DNA of 63,905 bases, the filler included, from Dugesia japonica (lineage: Eukaryota), in NCBI GenBank assembly GCA_001938525.1. It is 6 parts of 6 records of this genome, joined end to end, with 100 filler letters (N's around TTAATTAATTAA, not from the genome) between each part and the next. Parts side by side here need not be neighbours in the genome. Positions count along the whole stretch, not along the records: positions 1 to 14,080 come from MQRL01518261.1; 5 more parts are not named here. One strand, given 5' to 3'. The notes beneath the pieces were generated by a model. It did no database searches and had not been told where the DNA came from. It worked only from the letters and a program-made list of their open reading frames with translations. The position numbers were made by a program, and so were the translations under genes. Below are positions 4,297 to 34,016 of the stretch, piece by piece (positions within the stretch are counted from its first letter, which is position 1; each line of letters opens with the position of its first letter).

Positions 4297-4504
4297 ATTT
4301 GTTTTTCGAAGATTCAATAAAGATCACATTTTCCAATCGATTTTGCATTTGTTGCAAACTTTTATTAGTTACCTAATTATGTTGGCTTTTATGACTTTCA
4401 ATGTATGGGTTTGTCTGTCGATTCTGCTAGGATCAATGATTGGATATTTTCTTTTTGGGTGGCGTAAATCATTGATTCTGGAAAACTTAGACCATTGTCA
4501 TTAG
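4297..4504 (+). CDS. SLC31A1: High-affinity copper transporter CTR1 (SLC31 family), terminal exon
   Basis: Acceptor ttttag at 4291-4296; HIFQSILHLLQTFISYLIMLAFMTFNVW..GSMIGYFLF..DHCH* contains the MxxxM TM2 motif, GxxxG TM3 motif and C-terminal HCH. Confidence 0.93.
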
Positions 4505-7189
4505 ATAAATAATTATAATTCAGTCAATAACTATAATCTGTTGTTATATAATGTGCTTTAAATAGTGTTGTTATTGAGTCTTGATTATTGAACGTAAAAT
4601 TTTCGATATTGTTTTTCTGTGAAATAAAATTTTGGATGAGTTGTTCAATTTTTAATTCATTGATTATCTAAAAGTTTATTTATGCATTTGTGTGAGAATC
4701 AGTCCAAAGTATTTTATTTAAATCAAAGTTCATTCAAGTGCAGTTTTTTTTTCAAATTCTCGAAAACGAAATAATGATTTCTTAATTGATTTACTTTTCG
4801 TTGGTTTTTATTGTAATTATAATTAAATAATCAATTGTAATGTGACTGTTAGATGAGTTTGAAGTACTCATCGTATCATCAATATCGAAACTCAAGAAAA
4901 TTTATTCACAAAACAAAACTATAACTAATAGTATTTGCTTATTCAAACAAATTAAAATCCCGTGTTTTAATTTATTATTAAAATTTTAATTTATTATTTA
5001 AATCTTTTTAAATCAAAGATTTTAAGAAAAATGATCATCAATCACACAAAAATTTCAACTCGCTTTTCAGAATACACTCCACAAGTGCAATATTTAATTT
5101 TATGAAGTATTTAATTCGAACAAATATGATGTTAAATTGTTTTCTAGAATTTTTTTTAAATTATCAATATTTCATAAAGATTCATTAAAAACTCGAATGT
5201 TACACGACTGTATTTTTGTTTATTTAAATCAAAGTTACAAAATAGACGTTGATAAAAAACAATTATTTATAAATAATATCATTTCATTAAAACAAAAGAT
5301 TTGATCAAATTTTTTTTGTTTTTGATAATATTTCGAATTTTAATTAAGTTAAATTTTAATAATTAAAAACTAAATATTAAAATTTTAATATATTTCTTTT
5401 AATTATAACATGTATAAAACATTAAATATACAGAAAATAATTTAAAAAATTGATCAAAACACAAATTTTCTTAAAAAAAATACAAAAGTTTTAATCGAAA
5501 TAATCTAATTTATTAATATTAATACAATAATTTAAAAATAATAATGATAATAATAATAATTTTATATAAATAGTTTTAAAAATTAAAAAATATAAGATTC
5601 AATAATAATAAAAATTAAATTGAACAAAAAATATATTTTTGATAATTATAAAAGATAATAAATTAAAAAAAAAGATAATTATAATTGAAATAAAATTTTA
5701 AAAATTTCAAATGAATAAAAATTATATTAAAAATATATCAAAATCCAACTAATAATTAAGCATTTAAGAAATTTTTTTCGATGTAATTTAAAATAAAAAT
5801 TTATAACTTAAATAAACCAATAAGATTTTTATAAAATATAAAGAATTTTGTAACAATGTTCTGTTATCGTTTAATCTATCAAAAAGTCATCATATTCCTA
5901 AATAAGACATATGTCGAAAATTTGAATTTCTATAAAAATACATTTTATTTTGATCGAAGCCTTTTCTTTATTTTAATGAAGTATCATTTTTTGTAAAANN
6001 NNNNNNNNNNNNNNNNNNNNNNNNNNNNTTTTTATTTAAATAAATGTTAGAAGAAAAATAAATTGTTATTAATAATGTGTAAGTAAGCCCGCTTCCTAAT
6101 AATAACTATTGCGGCAAATTAAACATTCCTGATAGTTATTTTTAGAGATAATTTTATTATTTTGTTTTAAATTAAAAATATACATTTGAAAAGTATTAGT
6201 AACTTAAATAAAATAGAAATTATTAAAATCAATAAAATGTATTATCATTATAAAAATTTGTACAATTACTTTTACAATTACAGTTTTATCGAAAGTGACA
6301 ATAATAAAAATAACTTATAAAAAATTGTTGGGTTTACATGATTTCAATCTGTGACTAGAAACATTTCATGGAATACCACAAACCTTTAGCATCGGATACT
6401 CCTTGTCCGCACCCGAAGAGATTCTGGTAACTCTCAGACGCACCAAGGTATTGTAACTTCTTTTTTTTCTTCGGGTTCAGCGGATGTGAGTACTAGTCCG
6501 CTATAGATTTTTAATTCTTCGGTAATTATTACCAACCTATATTGGAAGATTTTGACACACTCAGTGAAGATTTTAAGATAACCACAATACTGATTTTACA
6601 CAAGATGAGGAAATCCCACATTTTTTAAGAATGTTAAGTCCTAACTTTAATACATTACGATCATAATAAATTACACAAAATGTTTTCTTCATTTGACCTT
6701 CATAAGCAACTAATCATTTGGTTAGTCTGTTGCCACACTAAAATTTATATCTTTATTACTTATGTTGGGACGAAGCACCCAGAAGAATGAAAGCAAGATG
6801 GAAGGGGGTCATGAATGACCCAATATCAAGATAGTAACGACAGAATAAAACATTTTATGAAAAACAAGTACGAAAATCCGGACAATGATATTAAATGGGA
6901 AACTCAGAAGATCAAATTAAATGAGTGATTAATCATAATAATCGCAAAATTAGGAAAGTTATTAAAGAAAATAAATAAAAGAAGAAGAAATAAATACAAA
7001 AAAATAATAATTAATTTAAACAGAAAAATTAGTTAAAATTGAGACGAAATCTGTTTTATGCAAATAACTCTGGTCAGGAAAGTCGGAGGAAATCCTGGAA
7101 AGAAAATACGGAAAGAAGATAACAAGACGCATTAGAATTGGTAGGAAGCAAAAACTTACCATCATCCAGAAGGGTGCTGCAAGGCTTCC

Positions 7190-7400
7190 AAGATCGGGCC
7201 AATGAGAGACCTAAAAATAAAAATAGAACAAAGACACAATTATCAGGTGTCATGATAAAAATAGCTACCAATTGCTGCACCAAAACTTGTAGAAAATTTT
7301 GGAGAAGTGGCATTGGAGCCAATAGAATCGGAAAAAGGCCGATCTAAAAAATAATCAGCAAATCTAGAACAAGTCTCAGAAATGGTATAAAAAGACCCCT
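7190..7400 (+). promoter_or_regulatory. U3-like Pol II promoter of giant LTR copy 1
   Basis: CCAAT at 7199 and 7319, TATAAAAAG at 7386; TATAAAAAG(g)accc conserved at 24636 and 16305-16313(-). Confidence 0.7.
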
Positions 7401-9041
7401 GACTTTAACGAAAAAAACAACAAAAAAATTATATTTTCATTCCTTGACAGTTGTGTGGAATAATACAAAAAAATTAGATTTGAAAAGTTAATACGCGAAT
7501 TCAATTACTAAAACAAACTAATTTCGTATCAGTGGGAATTAAACCAGAAAAGTCCAAGTAAAAAATTGCACATAAACTTATCCTAAAATAATTATATTAC
7601 TTACAAAGGAGTGAGAAGAAGTCAACATCGACATAAATACACTTTGGTTCAGATCAATTGTTGTTTTCAGTCAAACACCCCGTTGCAGAAAGAAAAGTTG
7701 TGTATAAATAGTAAATATGCGTTATATTTTATATGAGTAATTTAATGAAAACTAATTGTTAATAAATTTTTGTTAACATGTTATTGGTTTATTTTATTAT
7801 TAGTCTAAATAATGATAGTATAAATTCGCAAAATAGCGATTCTGATCTTAAGCTGTTATATAAAATGTATTTTGCCCACAATTAATTCAATTACTCAACT
7901 GGAAAGGCAACCCGGTAAGAAAGTAACAGATGGATGCATACCCACCAACTTATATAACAAATGCTACTGCATATTATCACTTCTCGTCCCACTAGGCATG
8001 CAGCGTAGACAAGTTGATCAGAATAAATTCATGTCTACCCGTCAAGTTGCACAATTAATTTTTTAACCTGGTCATACTGATCGAGATAGGAGACAATTTA
8101 CTAACGGTAATGCGCTGTATAAGGCCTGGATAATAATCGATTAATTCAATTCACTAACCATGCATGTAAAACAATAACACCGCAATCACATACACACAGC
8201 TCGGTTGTAATGCATGCATGCCATGGCAATATTATTCCCAAAATATAGCTAACATAGCAATTCTTAAAACACGTTTCGCAACCTTGAAAGTGTCGCCAAG
8301 GGAAACGTAAATTACCCCAATTCAAATAATACCATTTATTAATATATTTATTAAACATTAAATTGTATTCAGTTATGCTTTCAGGATAGTGAGCCAGCTC
8401 TTAAGTAAATATATCTATAAAACTAAATTAAATTTCAAAGTGTAAAATGAATTATTTCAATTTACAAAGTGGCGAATAAATATTTAAAAAGAAGAAAAAT
8501 TTCTATTAACTGCTATACGGCAAGATGAATAAAATCTTTTACAATTCCCTTCTCAATCGTTTTCTAAAATTGATGGAGAGTATTGTTAGCGAAATGCAAA
8601 AAATTTATTAAAATCAAATCCGGCGTAAATCCAATGATGTATAATATCTTATGGAAAAGTATAACGATGATAAGATAGTTTATGATATTGAATATGGTAT
8701 CCGAAATGTGATGAAAAGCTTTAAGTTGATTTTAATAAAAACAATTTTAACCGTTTTATTAAATTTTAGAACTACAATTGAGAATTTATTGAATTGAATA
8801 GACATAAAATGAAGATTTTCAGGAAAGGTCGCTTTATTACCAGCTAATTTGCAGGGGCACTAATGATTCAAATGGAAAAGAAATACTTGATTTGACAACC
8901 ATATAAATTGTAGCTCCATTTATTTTTTGTTTAAACTTCTCTCATCAGTTTTTTGAAGCAGATACTGGAGTTAGACTGGGGGGATTGTTATAATTTACTA
9001 TGCTAATTAATGGTTAAATAAAAGATAATTTTTGTTGTCAG

Positions 9042-9187
9042 TTAAGAAAACCGGGCAGTGTGACCGACCCTTTCTCGAAAATACTAAAACTAATCCGGCT
9101 TGAAAGGCGTAAATCTCGGAAATGTTCCCCTTGATGTCTTCTGTAGATCTAGATGCAGGACAAGCATCACCTAAAACAGGAGTGTAA
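9042..9187 (+). pseudogene. Cassette ORF A, copy 1 (internal deletion)
   Basis: Acceptor gtcag at 9037-9041; VTDPFSKILKLIRLERRKSRK / MFPLMSSVDLD aligns with copy 2 ORF A ends; AATAAA at 9213. Confidence 0.7.
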
Positions 9188-9321
9188 TCTGTTAATTGCC
9201 TTTCTCGTATAAAATAAATGTACAAGTCGATTGACTCTAATTGTTAATTCTTTGGATTATTATTAATTAATTTAAAGAAAGTTATATATTATAATTGAAA
9301 CCACCTATCTGTTAATTATAG

Positions 9322-9701
9322 ACATAAAGTCAATTTGGGAAAGGGTCGTCGATAGGAGGACTCATCGAAAAATCTTTCGACGACACCACAATCCTCATAA
9401 TCGAGACGCGGGCATCTTGGCCGACCGATCCAATCTACCACCTGTAGAATCAATAGTGTCCCGTATAAGAGATTTTGGGGAACGCCAGCAGTATCAAAAC
9501 TGGACGGGACCTGATCGCACCCTTGCGACGTCTTTTCACTACCGACCTTCTGTTCCAGCTCCTGCTCCCGCAGTGCAGGCTTTCATCTCGAATCTTCTCT
9601 AGGAAGTCAGGGAGCCGAATGGTGTAACCGATGTTGAAAACACCGCCCCAACCCCGACAATAGTAATGATCCACACTAATCCTTTTGGTTGTCTGATATA
9701 A
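9322..9701 (+). pseudogene. Cassette ORF B, copy 1
   Basis: ttatag|AC ATA AAG..; IKSIWERVVDRRTHRKIFRRHHNPHNRDAGILADRSN homologous to B at 27145, 32907, 38949; TAG 9600 at a Trp position; AATAAA at 9701. Confidence 0.72.
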
Positions 9702-9947
9702 ATAAATAAGTGTTTTAGTTGCGGCTACTCTTAATTTTTTTTGGTTTTGTAAAATGAAATTCTGCTAATAAGGGAATGACATTGGATTTAATAACTTTCT
9801 TAAAAAAATAAAATAATAGTAATACCGAGTGATGTTATTAAACTGGATTAATCTTATTATTAATTTGGTGGACCAGACTACTTAGCTTTTCTGTTAGAAA
9901 TTAAACATCTGGTAAAGTGTACCATCTTTAAAAGGTTTATATTTTAG

Positions 9948-10306
9948 TGCATTCGTCATTAAACAAATCACAGGCTCCACGCAAAAAACTACGAGAGACA
10001 AGCGAAGACATTGATCTGACGTGGGACCTTTATAGATTAACTAAAAAGCGTTGGGAGGCCGATGTCGCTAATGCGGAGGCTAAGGTTAAGCGCTATAAAA
10101 CGAAATGCTTATCCTTCAAAGCCGAGGCTGAAGCCTCATATCAACAGGAGAGAGCCTGGAAGGACCAGTTAGACTCTCTGACCGAAATTATCCGGTCCTG
10201 CCACGACCGAGAGAATAAACTGGTAAACGAAATCCTCAAGCTAAAGAAACTCGTACTCCTGTCCCCCCTCATGGTAGATAAAGGCGGGCAGGTTCCTCGA
10301 TCTTAG
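9948..10306 (+). CDS. Cassette ORF C, copy 1 (intact ~119 aa, probable coiled coil, unknown function)
   Basis: attttag|TG CAT TCG..; open to TAG; homologs at 27703 and 33510; AATAAA at 10326. Confidence 0.78.
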
Positions 10307-10440
10307 TTATTTTGTGACTCTAGTTAATAAAAATTTCTGTTGTCTTCGTTGTTCTCTTATTTTCAACCTAATTATGTCATCATCTATATTCAATGCTATT
10401 AATGTGTTTTGAATACTCATGAACTAATTCTTTTATTTAG

Positions 10441-10823
10441 TGCTACGAATTAGTTTTCCCAACAGCGTCCGAAGATGCCATCGCATTATGCGACGCCTTC
10501 TTATTGAGAGGCACTTAAAACGTAAGGCAGATCGGGCCATCCTCAAACATTTAGCCCAACGTGACCAACTAATAAAAAAGTTGGATCTGATAATTAGAAA
10601 ACAGAATGATTTAGCGTCCCAAACCAAGGCCCTCGAGACAGAAAATAAACAACTACTGTTGAGAAAGATAGAATTCCTTAAACAGTATATAGCCGACCTC
10701 TCCCGCCAGATAAACAATCCAACGTTAATACAATAGGACGATGGTGAAGATATCGCCACCTTCAACTTTTCTATAACCGACCCGACCCAGTGGTTGGATC
10801 CTTGGGCGCTAGATTTGATTTAA
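10441..10823 (+). pseudogene. Cassette ORF D, copy 1 (basic N-terminus, coiled coil, acidic QWLDP tail; one W->stop)
   Basis: tatttag|TG CTA CGA..; TAG 10734 aligns with TGG in copy 4; read-through gives DDGEDIATFNFSITDPTQWLDPWALDLI*; AATAAA ~10842. Confidence 0.75.
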
Positions 10824-11399
10824 TTTCTTTTTTGTTTATAAAATAAATGATATAGAATTAATATTGTATTTTCCTTCTTCACTAAAAGATGTAGGGAAAA
10901 GTGAAGCCAAATACAAAGGTTTATGGGTGTGCACCTCCCATTAAGAGAGAGATCAACCGCCATAAACTGAAGACCTACCCTAGGGTCGGTAAGGTAAATT
11001 TTTGAAAGGGTTCCCCTGAGGGCTGTTTTTCCCCAGCCACGTTATTTTTTAACTCAACTCAGGAGGGACCTCAACACTTATATTCTTTACATATTTAAAC
11101 AGTTATTAATTTTAATCTTACAACTTGATTTTCTGTAATCTACACATATTTATGCAATTAAAGACGAGTTACATTTCTGATTTTTTTCGACGAGATTGAG
11201 TACTAATGATATGTTTGAATTCATTTAAATTAAATTTTCAACACAGTTGTCTTTTCATTCTAAGCCAATATTCGTTTTCGAAATTCAAACTTTTCGATTA
11301 CAGTGATTAGTCTCTTACGTCAAGGTTATAACAATGATCCATCAGTTACAAACATAAATTATTCGAAACTGAATATCATCGAAATAACAATTAAAGAAA

Positions 11400-12790
11400 A
11401 CTACGCATGAAAATCAAGGATCATAGAACAGTTGTGTAGCTGACGAAGCAACAAGAAGTTAGAATAAACCGATAAAATAAACGATACTTTTGAGGGTTTA
11501 ATGAAAGCTCTATTGACTGCATCAATATTATGTTTTTCTGAAATAAAAAAAGAATTTATATTAGACACAGATGTCAGGTTTGATACGATTGGATCAGTAT
11601 TGTCGCTGAGAGGTAAAGAAGAAAGCTAAAAGGTTGCGGCTTATGGATTACACTCAATCAAAGGTTATGAAAAAGGATACTGCATCACACGAAAAGATTT
11701 ATTAGCTACTTATTATTTCTGCATGCATTTCAAACATTACTATACGATATAAGATTCACTCTTAGGAAAGATTATAAGGCTCTTACCTTTAGAATGACAA
11801 CGAATAAATCATTTACGGCACAATTCCAGACATGGATTAACTAGCTGAGTAGTCTAGACATGATATCAGAATGTAGAAAAGGAATTCAACATGGTAATAC
11901 AGATATGTTATTTAGACCAAGATGCGAAGTATGTGTACATTGTAAAATGTCACATAAAGATTCCAGGAAAGGGAAGATTAAAACAATAGTACTGATCACA
12001 ATAGAAAAATATAAAGATGGCCAATTAAACATTTCTGAAGAAAAAGATTTAATCAAGAAAATTGATTTTCCGGATTTCGAAATACATGAAACAATGGAAG
12101 AAATACACAAATAATTATGTCATGCAAGAGTTGAAAAGGTGTACGAATATATGATAGACAAATACATTGCGAAGAATTTGTGGAGCCAAATAGTTCATAG
12201 GATAGTTCATAGTTGTGAAATTTGTCAGAAGGCTAATGTAGTGACGACAGCAATTAAAGAGAAGACAAAAAGATTAGAAGCTACCAATTTGTTTGAAGTC
12301 ATATTTATAGATGTATGTTAGCTAATGTAGGAAACAAGTGGACAAAAATACAAACTTAGAACATAAGACCAGTTCGGGACAATTCGAGATTTAATAAATG
12401 CAACACTTTAGGAATGAAAGAAAACAGATTTGGCAGACATTTTACCAGAAATTGATATTACTTTAAACGCAACAAAGCAGAACAGAAGTAGAAAGAGTCC
12501 AGCTGAGATCGCATCTGGAAAGAAAATTATCAAGAAAAGTTGTACGAGTCAGAATTTTCAGATAGAATTAAAGAAAACATTTCAAAAGTAACTAGAGAAC
12601 TCAAAGTAGGAGATTATGTGCTCATCAAGGTAGAAACAAGAAAAAAAGTCAAGACAGAATTCAGGGTCCTTATCGAATAATTGAGAAAATTCACGAAAGA
12701 CGGTATGTGATACAAGGAGAAAATGGACAGCGATTAGAAAAAAATGTAGAAAAACTTAGAAAGTTTCTTAAGAAGGAGAATATAAGGAAA
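11400..12790 (+). mobile_element. Decayed Ty3/Gypsy pol (RNase H-integrase) with PPT
   Basis: FILDTD.., AQFQTWIN, RKGIQHGNTD, CEICQK, FEVIFID, GPYRI; PPT aagaaggaga ~12770; same family as 37440-38632(-). Confidence 0.88.
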
Positions 12791-13029
12791 TAATTAATAA
12801 TTTCAGCCAATAGAAAACGATTAAAAATAATTATCAATATATTAATTATTTCTATGTACCCTTTATTTATTTTAATCAGTTATCTCAGTTAAAAATGAAA
12901 TAAAAATATGTCAAAAATAGTTCTGATTTTCAAAATAAATAATAATTTGAAGATTTATCTAACAATACTCATTCTTAGAGTCTATCAAGCTAAAATATGC
13001 TGCTCCATTTAGTGTATATAACATTATTT

Positions 13030-13420
13030 AAATATTTGACATAAGAAACGCCTGTATCTCCGTTATCGCGTTCAACCTCCCGAAGTCTGAACATAATATT
13101 ATGTTATTTTTATCCTTCTTCCAAATGCAAACTAATGAAGTGTTCAATGGTGAATTTCATGTCCTAATGATACCATTTTCAAACCAATTCCTGATGATCT
13201 CATCCATTTTACTTTCTAGATTAATAAGCTGTCTATATGGTTTTACATTAATTGGATAACTTTTAGTCACAATTCTATGCTTGACCACATGTGTTCTCCC
13301 AACATCTTTTTTATTTTATACATATCTTTTCCAACCGTAGATCCCAATTCCAAATATCTAGATCCTAAGTAATAATATAAGACAACTTTTTCTAAAGTTC
13401 CTTTCACTAACCTGCTTACT
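13030..13420 (-). mobile_element. Gypsy reverse transcriptase N-terminal fragment
   Basis: Frameshifted VGRTHVVKHRI..YPINVKPYRQ..ENGIIR..SP..LVCIWKKD...LCSDFGRLNAIT. Confidence 0.75.
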
Positions 13421-14180: not shown

Positions 14181-16889
14181 AAAAAAAAATAGCAACACAC
14201 ATTCCCTTAAATCTGTTGATGACTGTTGTTTCTCGGTGCATGATGGTTGATATTGCTTATGAGTAATCGGCAGGTGTGTCTATTAGAACTATAGAGGCAA
14301 TATCAAAATTTTACCAGTATGAATAAACTGACAATTACTGGGAAGGGAAGGACATGCCAATCTGCACGATTCACAATGCTCGAATTATTTCAGGAATTCA
14401 TTACCCAAGCTTACATCTTTTCCTACATTGCTCTGATGGATTAAGGNNNNNNNNNNNNNNNNNNNNNNNNNNNNNNNNNNNNNNNNNNNNNNNNNNAAAA
14501 ATTGGAATTCTCATATTACTAATAAATGTAGATAAGAATAGCTCGCGAGACGATTATTTGATTTTTATTCAAAAAAAAAAATTATCCAAAGCGCTTGAGC
14601 GAAAAATTCAAGAGTATGTTAGAGTCATCTCAATGAACGAATGCCGCTGTTTTATCATTCCTGGGCACTGACTTGGTCTCATGATCCATTATCTTGGTTA
14701 TAAAATACTCGATGCATGATGGAAATATAATGATGATCGGCNTAATTCCGGAGGTGTGGTGATGTGATTTAATCTACTGTTTATCTACTCATTTTCTATA
14801 CGAATCGAAACGGAATTTAACCACTGGTCTCCTTATTTTGGATGTTGGATATAATTAACAATATTACATCAAAATGACCCATGAATGTTCATTTGACTGT
14901 TTTAAATTTATATTAGATGGATTAATCAAATATGAGGAGTTGGTGATTAGATTATGTTGGTTGTTATTTGAGCAGTTACTGAGGGAGAGAGTTTAATTGA
15001 ATACATTTATATATTTTTCTCTTTCTTAATCAATGATAACATGTAAGTAAATTTATTATAATATAACATATATATTCAAAGTGATAAAAATAAAATAATA
15101 GCTAATTATCAATTCACTTTAACAATAACATGATAACAAACATAACAACAAAAATTACTATTATATCTAGCTGTTGGATACGGAGTAAACTGGTTTGCTC
15201 TGAACGGGTACGATAACAACAATGGTCGGTCCTGTTTGTGGAAGTGATAATTTCGTAGTTCGCTCCTTGGCACTTGACTATATTCTGAAATAGTTCTAAC
15301 AATTAATTTTTCCGTTAGATTATTATACCACTTTGCAACTTAGATAGTTAATTAAACGACGATTCACGTCAATTGAGCTCCTGATNNNNNNNNNNNNNNN
15401 NNNNNNNNNNNNNNNNNNNNNNNNNNNNNNNNNNNATTTGACTGTTTTAAATTTGCATTAGATGGATTAATCAAATATGAGAAGTTAGTGATTAGATTAT
15501 GTTGGTTGTTATTTAAGCAGTTACTGAGGGCGAGGGTTTAATTGAATACATTTATATATTTTTCTTTTTCTTAATCAATGATAACATGTAAGTAAATTTA
15601 TTATAATATAACATATATATTCAAAGTGGTAAAAATAAAATAATAGCTAATTATCAATTCACTTTAACAATAACATGATAACAACATAAACAACAAAAAT
15701 TACTATTATATCTAGCTGTTGGATACGGAGTAAACTGGTTTGCTCTGAACGGGTACGATAGCAACAATGGTCGGTCCTGCTTGTGGAAGTGATAGTTCCG
15801 TAGTTCGCTCCTTGGCACTTGACTATATTTTTGCAACTTAGATAGTTAATTAAACGACGATTCACGTCAATTGAGTTCCTGATAGTTTTCTCGTTGATTG
15901 GTGCTACTAAAGGTAGATAACTTAGAGTTGATTAGGCGTAGCTCTACTGATAGAGTAAAATATTGGTTAATGAATGAATTTTTTTGTCTAAAACCGGGGT
16001 CCTTTTTATACGATTTTCTGGACACCCCTACTGGTTTTATATTTGCCGATATTTTTAGAACGGCTTCTTTTCACGCTCATTGGTGCCAGCGCAGAGTTTT
16101 AGAATTTTTTCGTANNNNNNNNNNNNNNNNNNNNNNNNNNNNNNNNNNNNNNNNNNNNNNNNNNTTCACGTCAATTGAGCTCCTGATAGTTTTCTCGTTG
16201 ATTGGTGCTACTAAAGGTAGATAACTTATAGTTGATTAGGCGTAGCTCTACTGATAGAGTAAGATATTGGTTAATGAATGAATATTTTGTCTAAAACCGG
16301 GGTCCTTTTTATATGATTTTCTGGACACCCCTACTGGTTTTAGATTTGCCGATATTTTTAGAACGGCTTCTTTTCACTCTCATTGGTGCCAGCGCAGAGT
16401 TTTAGAATTTTTTCGTAGATTTTGGTGTCGTGATTGGCAACTATTTTTAGAGCGTCAGGTGAGGTTTTATGTCTTTGTTCTAATTCTTTTTCCTGGCCGC
16501 TCATTGGCCGGATTTTTGAATCCTTGCCATACCCCTCTGGAAGGTGGTAGGGTTTTTCTTTTTTCGGTCTGAATTGCACCGTTTAGTTTTCTTCTGGATT
16601 TTTCTTATTAGGGTCCTTTCTGGTGACCAGGGCCCGAGATATCCGCAGAAAACAGATTTTTATCTAATTTTCGTGAATTTTGTTTTTAAAATTAATTAAT
16701 TTTCCGTCTTAATTAATTATTTCTTTATATTATTTTTCGTATTATTTCTTTTTATTTAATAATTTTTCTTTGATTGCTGGCCCGATTGTTGGTTTATGTT
16801 TCATGTATCTTTTTCCTTTTCTCTTTATTTCTTTTCCCTGGTGGCTTTCCTTTTTATTTCTTTTCCTTTAAGGGTGTTTCACCCCAACA
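14181..16889 (-). mobile_element. Giant LTR-like unit, copy 3 (5' part, cut at scaffold end, with internal duplications)
   Basis: Minus strand starts TGTTGGGGTGAAACACCC at 16889 (identical to 23987); promoter region homologous to 7020-7400 and 24280-24660. Confidence 0.82.
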
Positions 16890-17100: not shown

Positions 17101-19800
17101 CTCTCCCATCTTTCAAAACGTTTTCCATCTTTTTAGCCATTCTATTCCTTTGGTTTTCAAACTATTTGGAAGTTTGATTTTTTCTTGATATGCTGTTACA
17201 AATCTCACTATATGTTATGGCCTTTCATATAGCAAACCGTTTTTTTATTGTATGCTTCCACTTGGACTAATAACCACTCTCCCTCTTTAAAGTATCTTTG
17301 TCCTTGCTTATCTTTGTCGAAATTTTCCGTTTTCTGTGCAACCTTCTCCAAATTATGTCGTACTATCTCTTCTTTGTCTGCCCTTCCTCTTAAGAGCGCT
17401 TCCTCTTTGTAAGAAAATTTATCTTTCGACCAAATACAATTTCGAAAGGAGGGAATTTTGTTGATTCTTGTATTGTAGCATAAATACTAAATTCTACTCT
17501 CGATAATAATGTCTCCCGATCTTTCTCATTATATTTCTCTTTTATTGATATCGCAATCATGTACCTCGCTGTTTGGATCATCCATTCTTCCAAACCATTC
17601 GACTGGTGTTAATACGGGGAGCTAAATTCGAAATTTTTCTAGTTTCTTTGTCATCACTTGACTTCCAAACACTTTACTTCTGCCCGTCAGAATGAATTTT
17701 GGTTTACCAAAAAGTTAAAACCATTTGTTCAAAATTATCATAAAAATTGTCTCTTTATCCATTTTTAAAACTGAAGATAAGTTGACTAGTTTGCTAAAAC
17801 GATCAATAATTACCACCATATATATATGTCTTTCCAGACTTCCTCGGTTCCATTTAAGCTACATCCACTACAATTTGTTCTAAAAGAATTTTGNTTCTTT
17901 TGTACTACTTTCCTTTTGGCATACATCTCACATTTATCTATACTTTTATTAATTGTTTCACGCATCCCTGGTCAGAAATAATCATCTTGTACGTATGAAA
18001 ATAACTTTTCCCCCCCTACATGACATAAATTTTCATAAATTTTCTTTATCACTTTATCAACTATGTTTGTCGAAAGCACTAACAAGAATTTATTTCCACT
18101 TTCCACAACTAACAAATCATCCACTATTTTCAATTCGTGCTTCAGTTTAATCCAGTAACTTCTTTGATCACTCTTTTTAGTCTCTAAACCTTCTTATTGC
18201 AACATTGCTACACAATTTTGCATTTTTTAATCTTTTGTCTGAGCCTGTCAAATCATTGTAATTATATCGGTCTCATATTAATTCCATTGATATGTTTCAC
18301 TCTCGCCTTTTCTCCTTTTGCGTTTATGTGTTTAATGCTACATAGTAAACATAAACTCTCCTTTAGCCTCGACAACCCATCCGCATTGTTTTATTTTTCG
18401 CCTTTTCTATACTTGAGTTCAAAAATATACTCTCCCAAAATTTGCCATCTACGTCTGAAATTGTGGACTGATTGGTTTCTTTATGTTGTTTTCAGAAATA
18501 CCAACGCTTTGTGGTCTGTTCTTACTAGAAATCTCTTTCCATACAGATATTGTTTGAATTGTTGTATAAATTCGTGTTTAGTTCTTTCCTTGTCATACAA
18601 TACCCTTTTTCATGAGCTGTCAAATGTCAAGATTCAAATCTATTACCACTTCCTTTTCCTCTTCGCATTGACTAAGGACTGCACCGATAGCCCCAAAACT
18701 AGCGTCAGTGTCTAAAATGAACATCCAATTCTCCTCGAGATATTCTATCACTGGAGCATTAGATAATTTGTCTTGTAGCGCATTAAAACGGTTCTGACAT
18801 GCTTCTGTCCAAACTAATGGTTTGGTGCAACCTAAAGTTGTTCCATATAACGGAGCTACTATCTTTGCAAAATCTTTTATGAAACTCCTGTAGCAGTTTG
18901 CTAGTCCCCAAAATGAACGAAGTTTTGAAGAACCTTCTGAAACTATAGAATTTTTTATCTCCTGAATCTTAACTTCATTAATGTATATACTATTTGCACT
19001 GATTGTATGTCCCAAGAATAAGACTTCTTTCTGATAAAGTTTATTCTTAATCCCGAATCTTTGATCCTGTAAAAGACTGTCTCTAGTATTTTATTGTGAT
19101 CCTCAAAATGTTTTTCCGTAAACCAGAATATTGTCCAGTTATACAATAACTCTTTAAAACTAACTCCTCAAATTATTCGTGCATTAACTTTTGAAAATTT
19201 GGCCGGTGCTGTAGCTAATCCAACAGGCATGCTGTTAAATCTGAATTGACCTTCCTTTGCACTAAAAGCACTGACATCTCTTGACTTTTCTGCTAACTCC
19301 ACTTGGTAATAAGCTTGGCCTAGATCAACCAATGAAAATATTTTCAAGCCAGATAAACAATCTAATAATAACTGAATGTCTGGCATTAAAAAAACATTTT
19401 TTCTATCCTCAAACTCACTTGTCTGTAATCCACGCACATTCTTATCAAGTCGTCCTTTTTACCCACAATCACTAATGGAAAATTCCAAGGACTATTACAC
19501 TTGCTGATTACACCAATCTTTGTTAATTGATTTACCATATCTTTAATTTTCTTTTCTAAATGGATTGGCTGTCTTCTAGGGTGATGTATTATAAAGATCT
19601 CCTTTAACTCTTATTACTTTTTTCGAATGTCCAATATCAAACTTTGAAGTCATGATTATCTTACCAAAATTCTGGAGCAACTGAATCATTTTTCTGTTAT
19701 CAATTCCTTTAATCAATTTCAACGCGTTATTTTTTCTATCTTCATCAGAATGTGTTATTTTCAGACTCTCATTTTTGATGTTATTTACTTCTGTTAATTT
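17101..19800 (-). mobile_element. Decayed Ty3/Gypsy pol (RT, RNase H, integrase) with PPT
   Basis: LVDLGQAYYQVEL, QFRFNSMPVGLATAPAKF, LRSFWGLANCYRSFIKDFA, FILDTDASFGAIGAVLSQ, PPFEIVFGR; RT-RH-IN order; PPT gatgggagag at 17101-17110. Confidence 0.93.
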
Positions 19801-21520: not shown

Positions 21521-22357
21521 TTAAAAATCCAAATCATCATCCGGATCCTCATCATCTTCATCGTCATATTCATCGGGACAATAACTGATACTAATTCCTT
21601 CACCACCTGAAAGAGCAACCTGTTGTTCTTGCTCACTTTTTAAATACGGTAAAACCAATTTATTTTTAGCCTCTAATTCATTTGGTTTCAAATCGATATT
21701 GAAAGTGGTTATTGGCTGTATTGCAGAAGGTTTAGTGTCGGTTTCACAAGATGTGATATCATTATTATGCTTAATAAACTCGTTAATTGTTAAAAATTTA
21801 TAATTTGCATCTAAAACTACATCAATTGATCCTATTTCGATTTTTGAAGTCAACTGTTTATTAATAAAAAAATCACAAATAAATTTTATATGAACATTAG
21901 CTTGACATTCTGAATGTTTGATATTCAATACCGAAGTTGCATACCGATTAAATGTCGAAAATTCATATTCTGTTATACAATCTTCGTGACACAAAATGAT
22001 CATTGTTGAAATATGTGCAAATTGTGAGATTTTTTTTAATTTCTGTACAATCAATTGCACTGGAAATTTCAACAAAATATGATTGATATCATAAATAAAT
22101 ATATTTGTTTTCTTTTCAGAATCGAAATCTTTTGATATTAAATTATCAAAACTCAGTATTTCCAAATTATGAATATTATTTATGTTTTGATTTTCAGAAA
22201 CGCAAAAATTTTCCCGATGAGGAGCTTTTAAATAATTAGAAACTATTGAGTTAAAAAGATGTATTCCTGAATGTTTGTAGTTATCAAATAGAAATACTAA
22301 TTTTGAGGATTCTAAGCCTTGCAACAGATTTTTGATGGAATTAATATTGAGTTTCAT
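21521..22357 (-). CDS. ELP5: Elongator complex protein 5 (Iki1 family), single exon
   Basis: 278-aa intact ORF ending TTFNIDLKPNELEAKNKLVLPY..ISYCPDEYDDEDDEDPDDDLDF, the characteristic ELP5/Iki1 C-terminus. Confidence 0.88.
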   Translation of the reverse strand: MKLNINSIKNLLQGLESSKLVFLFDNYKHSGIHLFNSIVSNYLKAPHRENFCVSENQNINNIHNLEILSFDNLISKDFDSEKKTNIFIYDINHILLKFPVQLIVQKLKKISQFAHISTMIILCHEDCITEYEFSTFNRYATSVLNIKHSECQANVHIKFICDFFINKQLTSKIEIGSIDVVLDANYKFLTINEFIKHNNDITSCETDTKPSAIQPITTFNIDLKPNELEAKNKLVLPYLKSEQEQQVALSGGEGISISYCPDEYDDEDDEDPDDDLDF

Positions 22358-23184
22358 TATTTCAAATAATCTGAATGATTATTTAAACAACTTAGTTTAG
22401 GTTAATATTAAAATTAATTAAAAGAATTACTTAAACATACCTAAGAAAATACTACAACTGAATATTTTATAAAAAAATTTATCAGATCTATTGAGTTTTT
22501 AAGAATGTATTGTTTTTCATTATGAGAAAGTTATCAAAAATTCACAATTTATGAAAGTATTTAATATCATTTACAATTAAATTTAAATACCATTACACTT
22601 TTTTAACAACAAATAATTTTTATTTCAAAAAATTATTTAACAAGCAAAGGTCAAAGTTGCTGTTTTTTNNNNNNNNNNNNNNNNNNNNNNNNNNNNNNNN
22701 NNNNNNNNNNNNTTAATTAATTAANNNNNNNNNNNNNNNNNNNNNNNNNNNNNNNNNNNNNNNNNNNNAACAATCATGACCCGATTTAATCATTATTATT
22801 AACATAATCATTAAAATTATTTGCATAAAATCAGATCATGTGTTGATTCGAAAATGATTTCTTAACAAAATTTATATTAGCATAACAATGAAATCATGTA
22901 CTTTGAAAATTATTTCTTTANNNNNNNNNNNNNNNNNNNNNNNNNNNNNNNNNNNNNNNAAATTAAAGTATTATCACATGTATAAATAATAAATAATATA
23001 TTATTAATTAATCAAAATAAATTTTGTAAACATGATAAAAAAATATTTTATTATAACAAATAAAGTTATTACACAACATATCATTGATAGTTATACATTA
23101 TTTGCTTGATATCCCATAAAGGGATCATAACGTGGTTATTATTCATTTGTTGAAAACCATTTTAAGCAATCTTGATACTATACT

Positions 23185-23986: not shown

Positions 23987-26739
23987 TGTTGGGGTGAAAC
24001 ACCCGCTAAACGGGAATAAGGTTGGAAAGCCGAATCAACAGAATAGAATAGCAGGACAACTATAGTCACCAATAATGAAATATAAGGCCTGAAATCACCA
24101 TTAAAAAAGAACGCAATAAAATCAAAGATGAATACGAAAAACCGGGTAACATGAAAGCAACTTACGATTGGAAATTAAGAAAAGTTAATTAATTAATAAT
24201 AAACAACCAAGAAAAGCAGTATGGAAATAATTAATTAACAAAAGAAAATTAATTAATTTTAAAAAATAAAAAGAAGCAAAATTAGATAAAAAATCTGTTT
24301 TACCCGAATAACGTAGTTCAGGAAAATAGGAGAGAATCCGGGTAAGGAAATACGGAAAGAAAATAATAAGACGCATCAAAATCGCCAAGAAGAAAAACCT
24401 TACCATCATCCCGAAGGGTGCTGCAAGGTCTTCAAGATCGGGCTAATAAGAGACCTGAAAATAAAAATAAAACAAAGACACAATTGTCATGTGTCAAGCC
24501 AAAAATAGACGCCAATGATAACTCCAAAATTTCGAAAACAATTTAGAAAATTGGCACCGGAACCAATAAGAAGTCTAAAAACTCATTTAAAAATAAACCA
24601 CAAATCGGAGAGAAGTTGGGGTGTGCAGAAAATCATATAAAAAGACCCTTAATTTTAGCAGAAACCACAACAAAAAAATTTATAAAACCACTAATTTCGT
24701 ATATTCATATACAGCTAAATTTCTACAGAGGCTTAATCGTGAATCATATCGGTCAACAGATATTCCGAGACATTAGCTGAATAATATTGGTTATCGTGCA
24801 TTAACCGTGATATCACAGAGGATCATTGTAACTTAAATTTTTCTGTTTGCATTGAGGGTAAATTTATTTCTTTCAAGAAACAGGAAAATACCGGAATTCC
24901 CAAGTCAGGAATCAAACCCAGGAATTGCCAAAACGTTATACATAAAAAACCCGTTGCAGGAATCTCTTAGTTTGTCCAAACGAAATAAAGAAGAAGTAAT
25001 TATTATTTTAATTGTGTTAAATTCGTGTTACATGAAAAGTTTATTATAATTTATTCTAATAAATTTAGCTGTTTTATATTGATATTATAAGGAAAATTTA
25101 TCTTGATTTATTAATAATTTCAGCTATGTTGGTTCGAGAAGAAAAAATTTAATCTAATTTATCGCAATAAATTTAGATATGCTAAAAACATCGTAATCTA
25201 CTATTTTAGTTATGAAAATAACTATCACCACGAAAGTCGATGGATAAATTTAGAACCAAAACATCATTAATTTGTTTTTACTTATGCATCTTTAAAAAAA
25301 CAAAAATGAAAATAGTTCGATCATGTCCCACATTAAAATAAATAAGTCCAATGATTTGGTCCAGCTAGAATTTACCGAGTAAACGATTACAAAAAGACAC
25401 AGCAACGGCTAGTATGAAAATCGAATCAGTAATAAATGTTTTGATGTCGATTCAAGTAGTAAATAGCTAGACAAAATAATTGAATACATAAAAAATAAAT
25501 ATATAAAAAAACCATTAGAATTATAACCTTTTTATTTTATCAAAATTAATTATCAATTACAACTCTGAAATGCAAATATCCACAGGAAGGGCCATGGTGG
25601 AAAATCAATAATTATATGTGCATATTTTTCCTTTCTAGTTAAATTCCATAGATCACGAAACTAAGAAACTAGCCTGCTACAGGAGGAAATTAATTATCTA
25701 ACTCCACAATTTTTTCAGTGAATCGAGCTACATAGATAAGTCCTCAAATTGCCTCCAATGTGTTGTTAGGGTCAGAATTTACATTATTAGGAGATATGTG
25801 TAGTTACCGTTATTTAATTCATCATCGAATTGATGCTGACCACTCACTAAACACACCAACACAACAATCGAAAAATCGATGACGTCAGTTAATTCCTAGC
25901 CCGTTGGTGACCTCGAGGCGTTGCCACTGGAGATAAAAATATTTCAAAATTTAAATAATATTGTTATCAATACAACAGTTATTGTATAGTACATGACTTT
26001 CAGGCGGGGTTTATAGGGACATTAATTAAATCTGACCTTCGATAAATTAAAATTATTTTCTTTTATGATAAAATAATAATTGATATCAAGCTCAAAGGAA
26101 GTGGGGATATAATTACAGAAAATAAGAAATAAGATATGATTCTTAAATTTTCTTCATCCCTCATCCTATGAACTTAACGAGCAAAATATGGAAAGTTTTT
26201 TTAAAAAAGTGTTTAGCGGATAAAACCTAAAGCAAAATCTAACAGTATGCAACAATTTATTTAAACCGATATATTTATCATGATTTAAATGTAGACAATA
26301 TCGTTGTTATAAAACGTTTTTCGACCAAATATCAAGTAGAGTTCAACAAAGTAATTATTGATAATTTTGATAAATATCCCTCTCTTAAACAAGAACGGGT
26401 CGCCACCGAGAACAGGTTAATTGAAATAATAAAGAATGAAAGGTGTTATGATATCAATAAATAAACACCTCGTTTTACCTTGTGAAGTAAAATGGGGGGT
26501 TCTTAATGTTGCAAAATTAAGAGATAAAATCGATCGGACGTAGAATTCTCCCATAAATGGTGGTTCCTGGATTTACTAGTGTTCCCCCGATTAAACTCAG
26601 TTACCAATGTTTTAGGGTACTTATCGGAGAATGTTTAAGTTGGATGGTAAACGAACTATAGAGACGTTTTACATTTTCATTCTTTTGGTTAAATAAAACA
26701 TTCTTTCATTCTGTTTCATTAGTCAGGCAACCAAACAGC

Positions 26740-26922
26740 ATGGCCAATCCTTTTACTAGAATATTAAAGCTAATTCGGGTTGAAAGACACAAATCTCGGA
26801 AAAGGTAGTTGCTATCTCACATTCTATCTCGCGGTGTGATCGAGCATCCCGACGAAACTGATCTCCAGTGTTTCGTCGAAATGTTCCCGATCCAGAATCG
26901 AGTAGATTTGGACGAGGAATGA
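26740..26922 (+). pseudogene. Cassette ORF A, copy 2
   Basis: MANPFTRILKLIRVERHKSRKR*LLSHILSRGVIEHPDETDLQCFVEMFPIQNRVDLDEE*; acceptor cattag at 26717-26722. Confidence 0.75.
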
Positions 26923-27126
26923 CAACGCGGAATAGGAATGAATTCGGGCGACATAGTTGCAGGCATAAATGTTTGAATTTTCACCGGTCCTTAATTACAA
27001 TTTTGCATGTGGTTTTACCGAGTAACAAATCTTGCAAAATAAATCGAATTGTTGTTATGGCTTGTGTTTAGTTATATAAATTAAGGTCTATTTGCCACAC
27101 TTCTGTTTTGCTACTCAAATAAAAAC

Positions 27127-27555
27127 CTGGAATACAAATTAGAAGTGAGCCTTGACACCCGTTCAGGTCGAACCGTGTTCCGGCGGTATCAAAATCCTTA
27201 TGATCGCCACGCCGGTGTGTTAATATACCGTTCCAATGTTCCTGTTGAACAATGCACAGCAGATCGGCAATGGGATGCAACTGAGAGGGCAGCCTATTAC
27301 AGTTGGTGTGGCCCGATGAGAGATAGAGTCGCCTTCTCACCGGCACCTCTTTCTTTTGAGCGATCCGCAGAGGTGCCACAAGTAGAACGAGTATGGCATG
27401 ATGGCCCATCGTTTATCGGTATCACCACGAATCGCTTACCCTCAACCTCGCAACTGTCTTCCTTAGTGCAAAATTATCTATGGGATGCCCGTAATGGTAT
27501 GGTCAGCAGTAATGATGAAAACTCTGGTGAAGAAGTCTCCGAGATATCGGTGTGA
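27127..27555 (+). pseudogene. Cassette ORF B, copy 2 (acceptor and start deleted, body open)
   Basis: SLDTRSGRTVFRRYQNPYDRHAG...LWDARNG; close to 38949 copy; AATAAA at 27569. Confidence 0.78.
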
Positions 27556-27702
27556 CCTATCTTATAGAAATAAAGTTTTGGCTAGGAATTTGTTCTCTCT
27601 GTCTTTTATTGTTTGATTGGTTAAAACCCTATTCAACTTTTGCTTTTTTGACTATAAACAGTTTTAATGAAATTCCGTAATTTTATTATGTTTATGTTAT
27701 AG

Positions 27703-27862
27703 TGCATTCCTCGCTAAACCGTCCATCGGCCTCTAATAAACAGATAAGAGAATCCAGTGAAGACACCGAAATGTCCTGGGAGTTATATCGACTAGTGAAA
27801 CATCGATTTGAGGCTGAGATAGCCACTGCCAACGCAAAAGTGAAGCGTTATGAGAATAAATG
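27703..27862 (+). pseudogene. Cassette ORF C, copy 2 (truncated)
   Basis: ttatag|TG CAT TCC..; HSSLNRPSASNKQIRESSEDTEMSWELYRL; homology stops after KC. Confidence 0.75.
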
Positions 27863-28800
27863 TGTAGTAAACTGGATGCCCTTAGCTATCTACATCTCCA
27901 CGCCAAACAAGCAAGAATTGAAGTAGAATCCGAAAATAAAAGACTCCAAACCATAGCAGCAAAAAGTCGAGCTCGTATGGGTCAACCAGCCAGAATATTA
28001 TCCAGAATAAACAATCCGAAGGAGAAAGACATTTTTTCTAGAGAACCCTCCAACTCCCCTTCTAGTATTCAACCCGAATATGAATTCCCAGCTTGCATAT
28101 TTAACGAACCTTACGATAGTGAGATACCTTCAGCATATAACGACATGTCCTGCCCACGATTCTTACTTACACAAAGATGACGGAGCATCTTTTCGTAGGG
28201 GGGTACATGTGTTGAGTTACACACAACATGCAAATACACAGTATGCAAATCAGTACACACATACATAACACACAGATAACAACGAATGCATCAAACAGAA
28301 CCAGATTCAAGTTGATCAATCTTCAAAGTCAAAGCAATCTCCCAAAGCAGAGTTGATTCAAACAAATTCAAATCCCAAACAGATCCAATTCAAAACAATT
28401 TGACTTATCCATTATCTGACATTATTTATTTGACTTATTAATATTCTATTTTCTGACATTGTTTATCTGAATTATTAATTCTGCTGAATTGAACATTTTA
28501 GTTTATAATTCATGAATTAAATAGTGTAGTCAGTTTTGTTTTTAATTCATTGAATTTATTTTATTTTAGTGTAAAATATTTTAAATTTATTTTTAGAAAG
28601 CAATTTATTTTTTGTGAAAATTTTTAAAGTTATTTTTGAAATACAATTAATTTTTGTAAAAAATATCTAAATGAATAAAATTTTATGGCAAATGTAAAGT
28701 TAAATTTTGAGAATTTTATTGTAGGTGTATCAAACCTACCTGTGTGAGATTAGTATAAATACTAATCAGTTTTTATTGTAAAGCAGACAATTCAATTACA
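27863..28800 (+). mobile_element. Probable nested LTR of another retroelement
   Basis: Begins TGTAGTAAAC exactly where ORF C homology breaks; candidate end TTACA at 28800; partner LTR not visible (gap). Confidence 0.45.
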
Positions 28801-31945: not shown

Positions 31946-32593
31946 CTAAATATTATAATCACGTTAGGACAATCTAACTTGATTTTAATAATTTATGACA
32001 TTTATTTTTAGATATTTTCAATACACCATTAAATTACTTTCAAAATATCGAACTTGTTTNNNNNNNNNNNNNNNNNNNNNNNNNNNNNNNNNNNNNNNNN
32101 NNNTTAATTAATTAANNNNNNNNNNNNNNNNNNNNNNNNNNNNNNNNNNNNNNNNNNNNATTTTTACTAATTATTATGGTTATTAATAACATTTTTATTA
32201 TTATTAATATTATTCTTGATACTATCAATGAATATGATTCTTATTGATTTCCTCGTTATTCTCGTTATTATTTTAGCATTTTTATGGCATCGATCTCATC
32301 ATCTTTCACAAATAAAATCTATTCGTGACCTGCTCAGTGTTACAGTGATGAATTCCATTAAATTATAGTATCTGTACTAACATTATTATTACTTATATAA
32401 GTACGTGAGTTATGATCCAAACAAATGTTAAAATCGTAGTCTCCTCTTGGGTACCAATACTGGAATGCTATTATCATTTGATTTTTATTCCTTCTTTTCC
32501 TGCATTCGAGTAGTTGACTCCACGCCTAGTGTAAATTCCCTTTTACTATATGCCTGAATTTCATTAAATTTTCTTTGCTGATTCAGATTTTCC

Positions 32594-32785
32594 ATGTCCA
32601 ACGTTCTAATAAGAACCCTCGAACTAATCCAACAAGAACGAGAACGATCACGGAGGAAACAAATAATAGGACACATCTTGGCTCCTTCGCTAATTTTACA
32701 CCCCAATGAGACCGACATCATCTGTTTTGCAGAAAATTTCCCTCCATATAAATTCAACCAAGTCAATCTAGATCAAGGAAGCTGA
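32594..32785 (+). CDS. Cassette ORF A, copy 4 (intact 63 aa)
   Basis: MSNVLIRTLELIQQERERSRRKQ..HPNETDIICFAENFP; HPxETD..CF.E.FP shared with copies 2 and 5. Confidence 0.75.
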   Translation: MSNVLIRTLELIQQERERSRRKQIIGHILAPSLILHPNETDIICFAENFPPYKFNQVNLDQGS

Positions 32786-32906
32786 TATTTTCTTCAGTTT
32801 TATATCAATTATTAAATGCGTTTCTATAATTATCTCGCTTTTTCATATTTATTGAGTTATTTATCACTATTTAATCTAAATAAAAGTTTACTATAATTTT
32901 ACAGAG

Positions 32907-33320
32907 ATGGAATATAAGTGGGAAGTCGTCCTCGATCGGAGAACTGGCCGCACAATATTCAAACGCTATAAGAACCCCTACAATAGAGATTCGGGTGTTT
33001 TCGCAGAAGGTTCTAACTTGCCACATGAAGAAGCTGAGGAAAAAACACAGTGAAACGCCACCATGCGCCACGCCTTCTATGACTGCAAGGGGCATGATAG
33101 GGCACGAGCTGTTTATCATGCAAGTACGTCTACAAACACATATGCCAATGGTGAATCACATACTATCCGGACGTGACAGGAAGGCCCATCGGTTGTAGGT
33201 CTCACTACCAATCAGTTGGCTTCTTTCTTTAACCTAAACGCGTTTGTGCAGTATTCGTAACACAGATGAGGGTGGCAATAATGAAAATTCTGGTGAAGCG
33301 ATCGATAACGACTCAACTTG
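32907..33320 (+). pseudogene. Cassette ORF B, copy 4
   Basis: ttttacag|AG ATG GAA TAT AAG TGG; MEYKWEVVLDRRTGRTIFKRYKNPYNRDSG..; two TGA at conserved Trp. Confidence 0.75.
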
Positions 33321-33509
33321 ATTATTTAGCTTGTTGTCTTTGTGTAATTAGTAATAACAATTTTACCGTTGTAATTCATTAATTGATTCATATCTACCTA
33401 TTCACTTACTTTCTTCCTAATTATCATAATAGGGATTAATCGTTTCAAATAATAAGTTTTACTGATCTTTGATTTTCTGTAATTGATAATGAAAATTTTT
33501 TGTTTATAG

Positions 33510-33868
33510 TGCATTCGTCATTAAACCGATCAACAGCACCCACTAAAAAAGTGCGAGAAACGAGCGAAGACTCCGAAAGGTCTTGGGAACTTTATCGTTT
33601 GGCGAACAATAGATGGGAGGCTGATGTGCCTATCGCAAACCCTAAGGTGAAACACTATAAAGCTAAGTGCATTGCCTTTCAAAAAGAAACAGAGGCCTTC
33701 CACGCTCAGGAGTGACTCTGGAAGACCCAGTTAGAGTCCTTCGCAGAGATCATCCCGTCCCTCCATGACCGTGAAAATAAGCTGGTCTCAGATATTTTAA
33801 CTCTAAAGAAGTCCATGCCACTCGAGCTGCTGATGGTTGATAAGAATACGCAAATCTCACGGCCATAA
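33510..33868 (+). pseudogene. Cassette ORF C, copy 4 (one internal TGA)
   Basis: ttatag|TG CAT TCG; same length as and colinear with 9948-10306, through HDRENKLV..LMVDK. Confidence 0.78.
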
Positions 33869-34016
33869 TCTTGGTGATTGTTTTCACCTGTAAATATAAG
33901 TTTCCTTGATTGTGAATTGATTTGTTTTCAATTATCTATTTGATAACTATTCTTATTATTCGATTGAATTTAATTCACTCAATCTATTGTTAATCTAATA
34001 ATTATTATCTGTTTAG

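Follow-up and report, generated by a model that had tools for sequence, protein, structure and literature searches.

Our analysis suggests that a 4.3-kb repeat, likely the solo long terminal repeat (LTR) of an LTR retrotransposon, probably carries a compact expression unit in which a promoter, an ATG-free leader ending in A and one splice donor serve four acceptors, and in which the start codon of two ORFs, C and D, is put together by the splice itself (A/UG; slashes in motifs mark exon boundaries). Transcription would begin at a promoter ~620 nt inside the LTR and produce a leader of ~300 nt whose last base is A, and splicing would connect the single donor to any one of four acceptors; behind each acceptor lie a small ORF and a poly(A)-like signal, such that A, B, C and D would occupy alternative last exons. 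A and B would start at their own ATG; for C and D, the A of the leader and the TG that opens the exon would together form the AUG. The transcription start, the use of donor and acceptors, the choice of last exon and initiation at the joined AUG are all predicted from the DNA.

A repeat family resembling solo LTRs

The window (the whole 63,905-nucleotide stretch that was analysed, filler included) consists of AT-rich eukaryotic DNA interspersed with N gaps, microsatellites and remnants of pol. Comparison of the window with itself revealed five partial copies of one repeat family:

6763 to 11076, plus strand: copy 1, the complete element, 4,314 bp, TGTTGGG...CCTCAACA, with a 4-bp target duplication
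15704 to 16889, minus strand: copy 2, 5' part, with a TATA-like box and an ATG-free leader (last base A at 15704, donor at 15703)
23987 to 27866, plus strand: copy 3, with the element start at 23987, leader to 24995, donor at 24996, A (ATG at 26740), B (to 27555) and C from 27703
32587 to 34623, plus strand: copy 4, 3' part, with A, B, C, D and the element end CCCCAACA at 34623
38641 to 39400, plus strand: copy 5, a fragment with the 3' part of A, and B

Only copy 1 has the leader, C and D together, and every copy is decayed in at least one ORF. Copy 2 has a local duplicate with its donor at 15158, and its downstream ORFs are absent before an assembly gap; copy 3 is interrupted at 27866 by unrelated sequence, and the 5' part of copy 4 was not found in the window. 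The element start, TGTTGGG, is common to copies 1, 2 and 3 (6763, 16889 on the minus strand and 23987, respectively), and the element end, CC(C/T)CAACA, closes copies 1 and 4 (at 11076 and 34623). The element therefore has the TG...CA ends with short inverted termini that are typical of LTRs, and the CTTA on either side of copy 1 is a target duplication of 4 bp, within the 4–6 bp range of LTR elements (as judged on copy 1, one end being missing from every other copy). Inspection of the flanks revealed no PBS after copies 1 and 4 and no PPT before copies 1–3. Because no copy borders on a PBS, PPT or internal region, a solo LTR is the best reading of the repeat, and a likely one, with no full-length element seen among the five copies. 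The candidate promoter and poly(A) sites within the repeat are defined by motifs alone, namely a TATA-like box (present in 3 of 3 copies) and AATAAA-like hexamers.

The 3' end of the element is conserved and contains a further pair of candidate splice sites:

11020 to 11076, plus strand: conserved stretch that closes the element at its 3' end; two acceptor-like sites, with exons starting at 11037 and 11063 (counterparts in copy 4 at 34585 and 34610)

These sites lie 40 and 14 nt before the element 3' end in both copies 1 and 4 (34570–34623 in the latter), in a block that is 71% identical overall between the two, which means that finding them twice does not count as independent evidence. Splicing from the leader to these acceptors would bypass A to D altogether and, in a full-length element, could serve to express gag-pol. 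At the other end of the repeat, a block at 7040–7400, with counterparts at 24280–24650 and 16300–16770, has 70–78% nucleotide identity, which is above that of the ORFs, and a codon-like periodicity. Read in its best frame, which is a minus-strand one (dN 0.17, dS 0.56), the block is hydrophobic, with stops in all copies; it may represent either a fifth gene in antisense orientation or a promoter region under constraint.

Several other features were found in the window. Decayed gypsy-type pol remnants are located at 11500–12970 (plus strand) and at 12980–13340, 17110–19700 and 37265–38630 (minus strand). The remnant near copy 2 (PF17919, E = 1.6e-14) ends near 17112, with a purine tract of its own behind it and a TGT start at ~17096, ~207 nt before copy 2, and it may be part of another element. 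The segment at 27867–28230, which adjoins the broken ORF C of copy 3, contains the end of an unrelated ORF (106 aa, no Pfam match), a G-rich tract and a TGT start, and corresponds to the 3' end of another LTR element. An intronless ELP5/Iki1-like host ORF is present at 21521–22378 on the minus strand (PF10483, E = 1.7e-05; distant protein matches with 28–44% identity), and at 4300–4510 on the plus strand is a last exon that, by eye, we take to resemble that of a Ctr copper transporter. At 14891–16417 and 60380–61880 there are near-identical local duplicates next to N gaps (96–98% identity) and a tandem array of ~320 nt; the duplicate at 14891–16417 is probably an assembly artefact.

An ATG-free leader and its donor

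The predicted 5' part of the unit is laid out in copy 1 as follows:

7386 to 7394, plus strand: TATA-like box (TATAAAAAG), predicted promoter; counterparts at 24636 in copy 3 and at ~16011 (minus strand) in copy 2
7416 to 7710, plus strand: predicted noncoding leader exon, ATG-free, last base A; the 5' end is assumed to be TATA+30
7711 to 7716, plus strand: predicted splice donor, GTAAAT

The TATA-like box is conserved ~620 nt inside copies 1 and 3 and is also found in copy 2. The three donors named in the original prediction are present as written, with A as the last exon base at 7710, 24995 and 15159/15704 (minus strand; local duplicates), and all three leaders end in A/GTAA(A/T)T. As had also been predicted, a joined AUG would have A at position -3 with each of the three leaders. 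The CCCGTT(G)CAG motif that was noted upstream of the donors does occur 32–50 nt before all three, but CCCGTT is found 13 times in the window, once within B. We take CCCGTT(G), at 7679, 24950, 15753 (minus strand) and 25900, to resemble a Myb-type binding site. Base composition changes at each donor, with GC content falling from 0.33 to 0.17, from 0.36 to 0.16 and from 0.45 to 0.20, and T rising in every case (from 0.31 to 0.47 in copy 1).

The leaders are depleted of ATG. Between TATA+30 and the donor there is no ATG in 295, 330 and 277 nt, compared with 4.7, 4.6 and 1.8 expected; when the leaders are pooled, there are 0 versus 11.0 expected in 902 nt (z = -4.4; matched by 0 of 3000 shuffles), and ATG is the most depleted of the 64 triplets. 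The first intron stretches behind the donors, by comparison, contain 22 ATG versus 18.7 expected, and in copy 1 the ATG-free run extends from 7385 to 7716, that is, from the TATA-like box to 6 nt beyond the donor. The leaders align with one another no better than shuffled sequences do (22, 101 and 268 of 300 shuffles scored as high), so they constitute three nearly independent tests of ATG depletion, conducted on donors that had been picked on grounds other than ATG content. These numbers should be read with the caveats that the 300 nt preceding the TATA-like box are likewise somewhat low in ATG (8 versus 15.2 expected) and that 42 of 2522 comparable 300-nt windows are ATG-free. The terminal A carries less weight by itself: A precedes GTAA(A/T)T at 68 of 187 sites in this DNA, so three A's alone would have a chance probability of ~0.05.

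Fifteen donor-like sites were listed in all, with A at position -1 in ten, G in three and C in two; between the leader and ORF A there are eight in copy 1 and, counting from the element start, five in copy 3. The proposed donors are weak: they have neither G at -1 nor G at +5, and they match the common planarian U1 at only 6–8 of 11 bases. G is the usual -1 base of splice donors. Another donor, or an internal micro-exon ending in G (or in C or T), might instead feed C and D, with translation beginning at a near-cognate GUG, CUG or UUG codon, which would likewise keep the TG fixed, and G-ended sites do exist at 7915 (G/GTAAGA, in the stretch between leader and ORF A of copy 1) and at 24858 (G/GTAAAT). 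We consider this unlikely, as neither of these sites has a counterpart in other copies or a fall in GC behind it, the site at 7915 sits behind an ATG-rich stretch (10 ATG in the 300 nt after 7711), and the other copy 1 candidates that do show a GC fall, 7737 and 8405, also have A at -1. Between the donor and ORF A lie 1.3–1.7 kb that do not align between copies, with no alignable block and no conserved peptide on either strand, and an internal exon could be accommodated there. A second leader micro-exon near 8370–8404 was considered and rejected (alignment score 60, versus a null mean of 46 and maximum of 81; its donor is missing in copy 3).

Four ORFs and a start codon divided between exons

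The leader ending in A would be joined to exons containing one of four ORFs, represented as follows:

9042 to 9218, plus strand: ORF A region of copy 1 (acceptor 9042), decayed and internally deleted; AATAAA at 9213
9322 to 9706, plus strand: ORF B region of copy 1 (acceptor 9322, phase 1); AATAAA at 9701
9948 to 10306, plus strand: ORF C of copy 1, TG plus 118 open codons; AATAAA 20 nt past the stop
10441 to 10823, plus strand: ORF D of copy 1, TG plus 126 codons, interrupted by a single stop near 10734; AATAAA 19 nt past the end
32587, plus strand: acceptor of A in copy 4, ATG at 32594
32905, plus strand: acceptor of B in copy 4, ATG at 32907
33510 to 33868, plus strand: ORF C of copy 4, with one internal stop
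34017 to 34377, plus strand: ORF D of copy 4, frameshifted
38937, plus strand: acceptor of B in copy 5, ATG at 38949, with an in-frame stop before it

Poly(A)-like hexamers occur 11–26 nt past the stop at 7 of the 10 ORF ends scanned, with none within 30 nt at the other 3, and their positions fit a set of predicted alternative last exons. A and B are under purifying selection, with synonymous sites near saturation. The distance from acceptor to ATG is 17 nt for A in copy 3 and 7 nt in copy 4 (18 nt to the aligned codon in copy 1), and 2 nt for B in copy 4 and 12 nt, including an in-frame stop, in copy 5; B of copy 1 has no ATG where copies 4 and 5 carry one. Six codons into B is a donor-like GAA/GT(G/A)AGC, with A at -1, which is found in copies 3 and 5 only (27145 and 38967).

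The acceptors of B in copies 1 and 4 had been described as phase 1, which is correct, but copy 5 enters B in phase 0 and has an in-frame stop immediately ahead of the ATG of B, and the phase is not conserved. Entry in phase 1 is also seen for A in copy 3 and for every C and D, a distribution that could reflect a shared phase-1 coding exon to which B, C and D are attached as alternative C-terminal halves, with xTG encoding an internal Met, Leu or Val; in copy 1, moreover, there is an ATG 30 nt before the donor-like site at 8405. Such a fusion appears quite improbable. A and B have their own ATG, with the stop in copy 5 lying between acceptor and ATG, A alone is entered in three different phases, and, because the entry phases of A and B differ, no shared coding exon could be in frame with all of them (bearing in mind that the copies are decayed and that single indels could blur the phases). 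There is no ATG within 300 nt before the three donors and no peptide conserved from there to A, and a phase-1 exit at 8405 would not be in frame with the ATG preceding it, nor does copy 3 have that donor.

Our data support the predicted arrangement of C and D, in which a noncoding leader would supply the first base of the start codon. C (at 9948, 27703 and 33510) and D (at 10441 and 34017) open with TG directly after an AG in five of five cases, each time after a TAG that ends a T-rich tract, and the closest other upstream AG is at least 15 nt away. The original prediction counted these as five instances; all five are indeed AG/TG, but they come from only three element copies and represent two independent origins, C and D not being detectably related. 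TG follows 22 of the 277 acceptor-like YAG sites in the window (7.9%, or ~0.6% for two independent ORFs). The frame said to be conserved, beginning 2 nt past the AG, is the one under selection, as shown by dN/dS in C (dN 0.30 and dS 2.48 between copies 1 and 4, 117 codons) and by pN/pS in D (pN 0.32 and pS 0.86 between the same copies, 54 codons), and, again as proposed, there is no ATG at the start of C or D; none is conserved nearby either. The first in-frame ATG in C is at codon 109 in copy 1, codon 103 in copy 4 and codon 24 in copy 3 (where it is not shared); in D it is at codon 17 in copy 1 (not shared), and there is none in the 54 codons of copy 4. The five residues that follow the split codon of C, HSSLN, are invariant across its copies. 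The ORFs that have their own ATG (A and B) lack TG after the acceptor, whereas both of those without an ATG (C and D) have it.

The third base of xTG is informative in its own right. Among 88 pairwise comparisons of fourfold sites, overlapping pairs included, the base is retained in 30, and in C it is retained in none of six three-way comparisons, yet the G of xTG is retained in three copies of C and two of D. For an internal Val or CTN Leu codon, the probability of this is ~0.04. Retention of this G points to a Met or start codon, although splicing or a TTG Leu codon could also hold it in place. In the unspliced DNA sequence the in-frame codon, made up of the G of AG and the TG, is GTG in five of five cases, and this codon could act as a near-cognate start on separate short transcripts with no splice involved. 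We find this very doubtful: the T-rich tract and TAG are kept before all five starts, and also before A and B, which need none for their start; the base three before GTG is T in three of five; no separate promoter motif was seen; and the ATG-free leader and its donor would be left unexplained. That A to D form an operon resolved by spliced-leader (SL) trans-splicing, with the SL giving the AUG, is highly improbable, since, although inter-ORF gaps are below about 350 nt and contain poly(A)-like signals, as in flatworm operons (PMC12582326), and although a flatworm SL ends in AUG and can start ORFs (PMC9851317), an AUG-ended SL would enter in phase 0 and, as originally noted, out of frame, closing after 4 codons in the three copies of C and after 25 and 37 in D, and a good upstream cis donor is said to out-compete the SL (PMC4558846).

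Together, the ATG-depleted leaders, the varying phases of A and B and the retained G strengthen the proposal that the AUG of C and D is completed, through a predicted splice, by a noncoding leader that acts in cis and ends in A. The accompanying notion of a regulatory switch fares less well. Unspliced RNA from the same promoter already has 46 ATGs before C and 54 before D, and so would hardly translate either ORF even with an intact ATG; A and B would rely on splicing as much as C and D do, and the term appears overstated. What the split start would likely achieve is that C and D are made only from RNA spliced to their own acceptor (one splice, one protein), and a read-through RNA that has been spliced further upstream would likely not yield them by leaky scanning or re-initiation. 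The unusual A at -1 of the donor would likely be locked in place by two genes. The split start may, however, have arisen without benefit and then become fixed.

Relatives, precedents and implications

Searches for relatives covered Pfam and the window for A and D, and extended more widely for B and C. C and D have no Pfam match above cut-off, only sub-cut-off coiled-coil matches, and Rfam gave no match within 6700–35000. C alone gave 14 candidates, none at E <= 0.001, and an alignment of B gave 286, none confirmed as relatives; patterns of B and C gave 271 and 591 matches, respectively, among metagenome contigs, none confirmed, and viral contigs gave 29 matches, none of them a relative. The sole match of a C profile among 1.84 billion representatives, consisting of eight short repeats in an unrelated 988-aa protein, was rejected, and Atlas matches for C and B fall below recognition level. 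Comparisons of C with D and of C with A were blank, and the paralogy of A with D hinted at by weak tblastn matches (E = 0.013–0.12) did not hold up in a profile comparison. A model of C built from a three-row alignment is a single 86-residue helix (pLDDT 84, pTM 0.44), and a coiled-coil accessory role is our best guess for this protein.

In complex retroviruses and in the adenovirus late genes, a common leader is spliced to a row of acceptors, yielding one protein each. The element described here would resemble these systems in having one leader and several acceptors, but would differ from them in that the whole unit sits in one terminal repeat and the leader adds a base to two start codons. 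A start codon built by splicing is already known in an LTR element: the env ORF of Drosophila errantiviruses belonging to the springer subclade is joined by splicing to a short upstream piece whose AU dinucleotide forms part of the start codon (bioRxiv 10.1101/2023.08.03.551782). In both cases an extra ORF of an LTR element would complete its start codon by a splice, which is predicted here. Springer env has a codon split AU/G, is one ORF located downstream of pol, and has mapped junctions, whereas the exons described here open with TG, so that the codon would be split A/UG by a predicted splice, and two unrelated ORFs would depend on one donor, inside the terminal repeat and beside two ORFs with ordinary starts. 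C and D (119 and 127 codons, respectively) are small and, having no Pfam match above cut-off, are unlike an F-type envelope encoded downstream of pol. Narrow phrase searches of the open-access literature returned no A/TG start common to alternative last exons in an LTR, which is not proof of absence.

Three other systems share some features with the element. MDG1-group Ty3/gypsy elements of Drosophila encode sORF1 and sORF2 (70–110 aa) upstream of gag, with an internal poly(A) site and a short transcript (PMC11952523); they likewise combine small accessory ORFs with an internal poly(A) site, but these ORFs lie outside the LTR, are unspliced and have ordinary starts. Sequence likeness was assessed through the family searches, which were blank. 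The 3'-terminal AUG of the flatworm SL acts as an initiator (PMC9851317, PMC12582326), so that there, too, a splice gives a start codon to an ORF without one, but it supplies a whole AUG, in phase 0 and in trans. Burro/GYPSM1, giant planarian gypsy elements with accessory domains in the internal region (PMC6431247), are similarly very long LTR elements with accessory ORFs in AT-rich flatworm genomes, and differ in that the available description includes no spliced ORFs in the LTR (PMC6431247); PMC8532177 and PMC11410931 contribute nothing further to the comparison.

A more speculative possibility concerns the recognition of the donor. In Schmidtea mediterranea, U1C snRNA variants are 2–4 fold enriched in stem cells, and U1C, a minor variant by read count, has a C to U change at the base that pairs with donor position -1, which fits A/GT donors (PMC6312358). 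When the S. mediterranea U1C sequence was compared with the donors of this element by counting matches over 11 bases, U1C gained the -1 pair at all three, extending the unbroken helix from 4 to 5–6 pairs, but total matches relative to common U1 were 7 versus 7, 8 versus 8 and 8 versus 6, and thus higher at one donor only. It is conceivable, though we regard it as a long shot, that the last A of the leader doubles as a start-codon letter and a splice-site key, with C and D produced mainly in stem cells, by means of a U1 specific to that cell type, from a four-gene unit of alternative last exons within the LTR whose fifth acceptor, at the LTR end, serves gag-pol.

If the proposed organization is correct, the terminal repeat of a mobile element would amount to a complete multi-gene unit, and two unrelated proteins would owe their full start codons to one and the same donor. 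Without a genomic ATG, such genes are invisible to ORF callers, and so the number of accessory proteins in LTR elements may be underestimated. Were the host a planarian, the element would also offer a natural test substrate for the role of stem-cell U1 variants in which the base that pairs with position -1 is changed.
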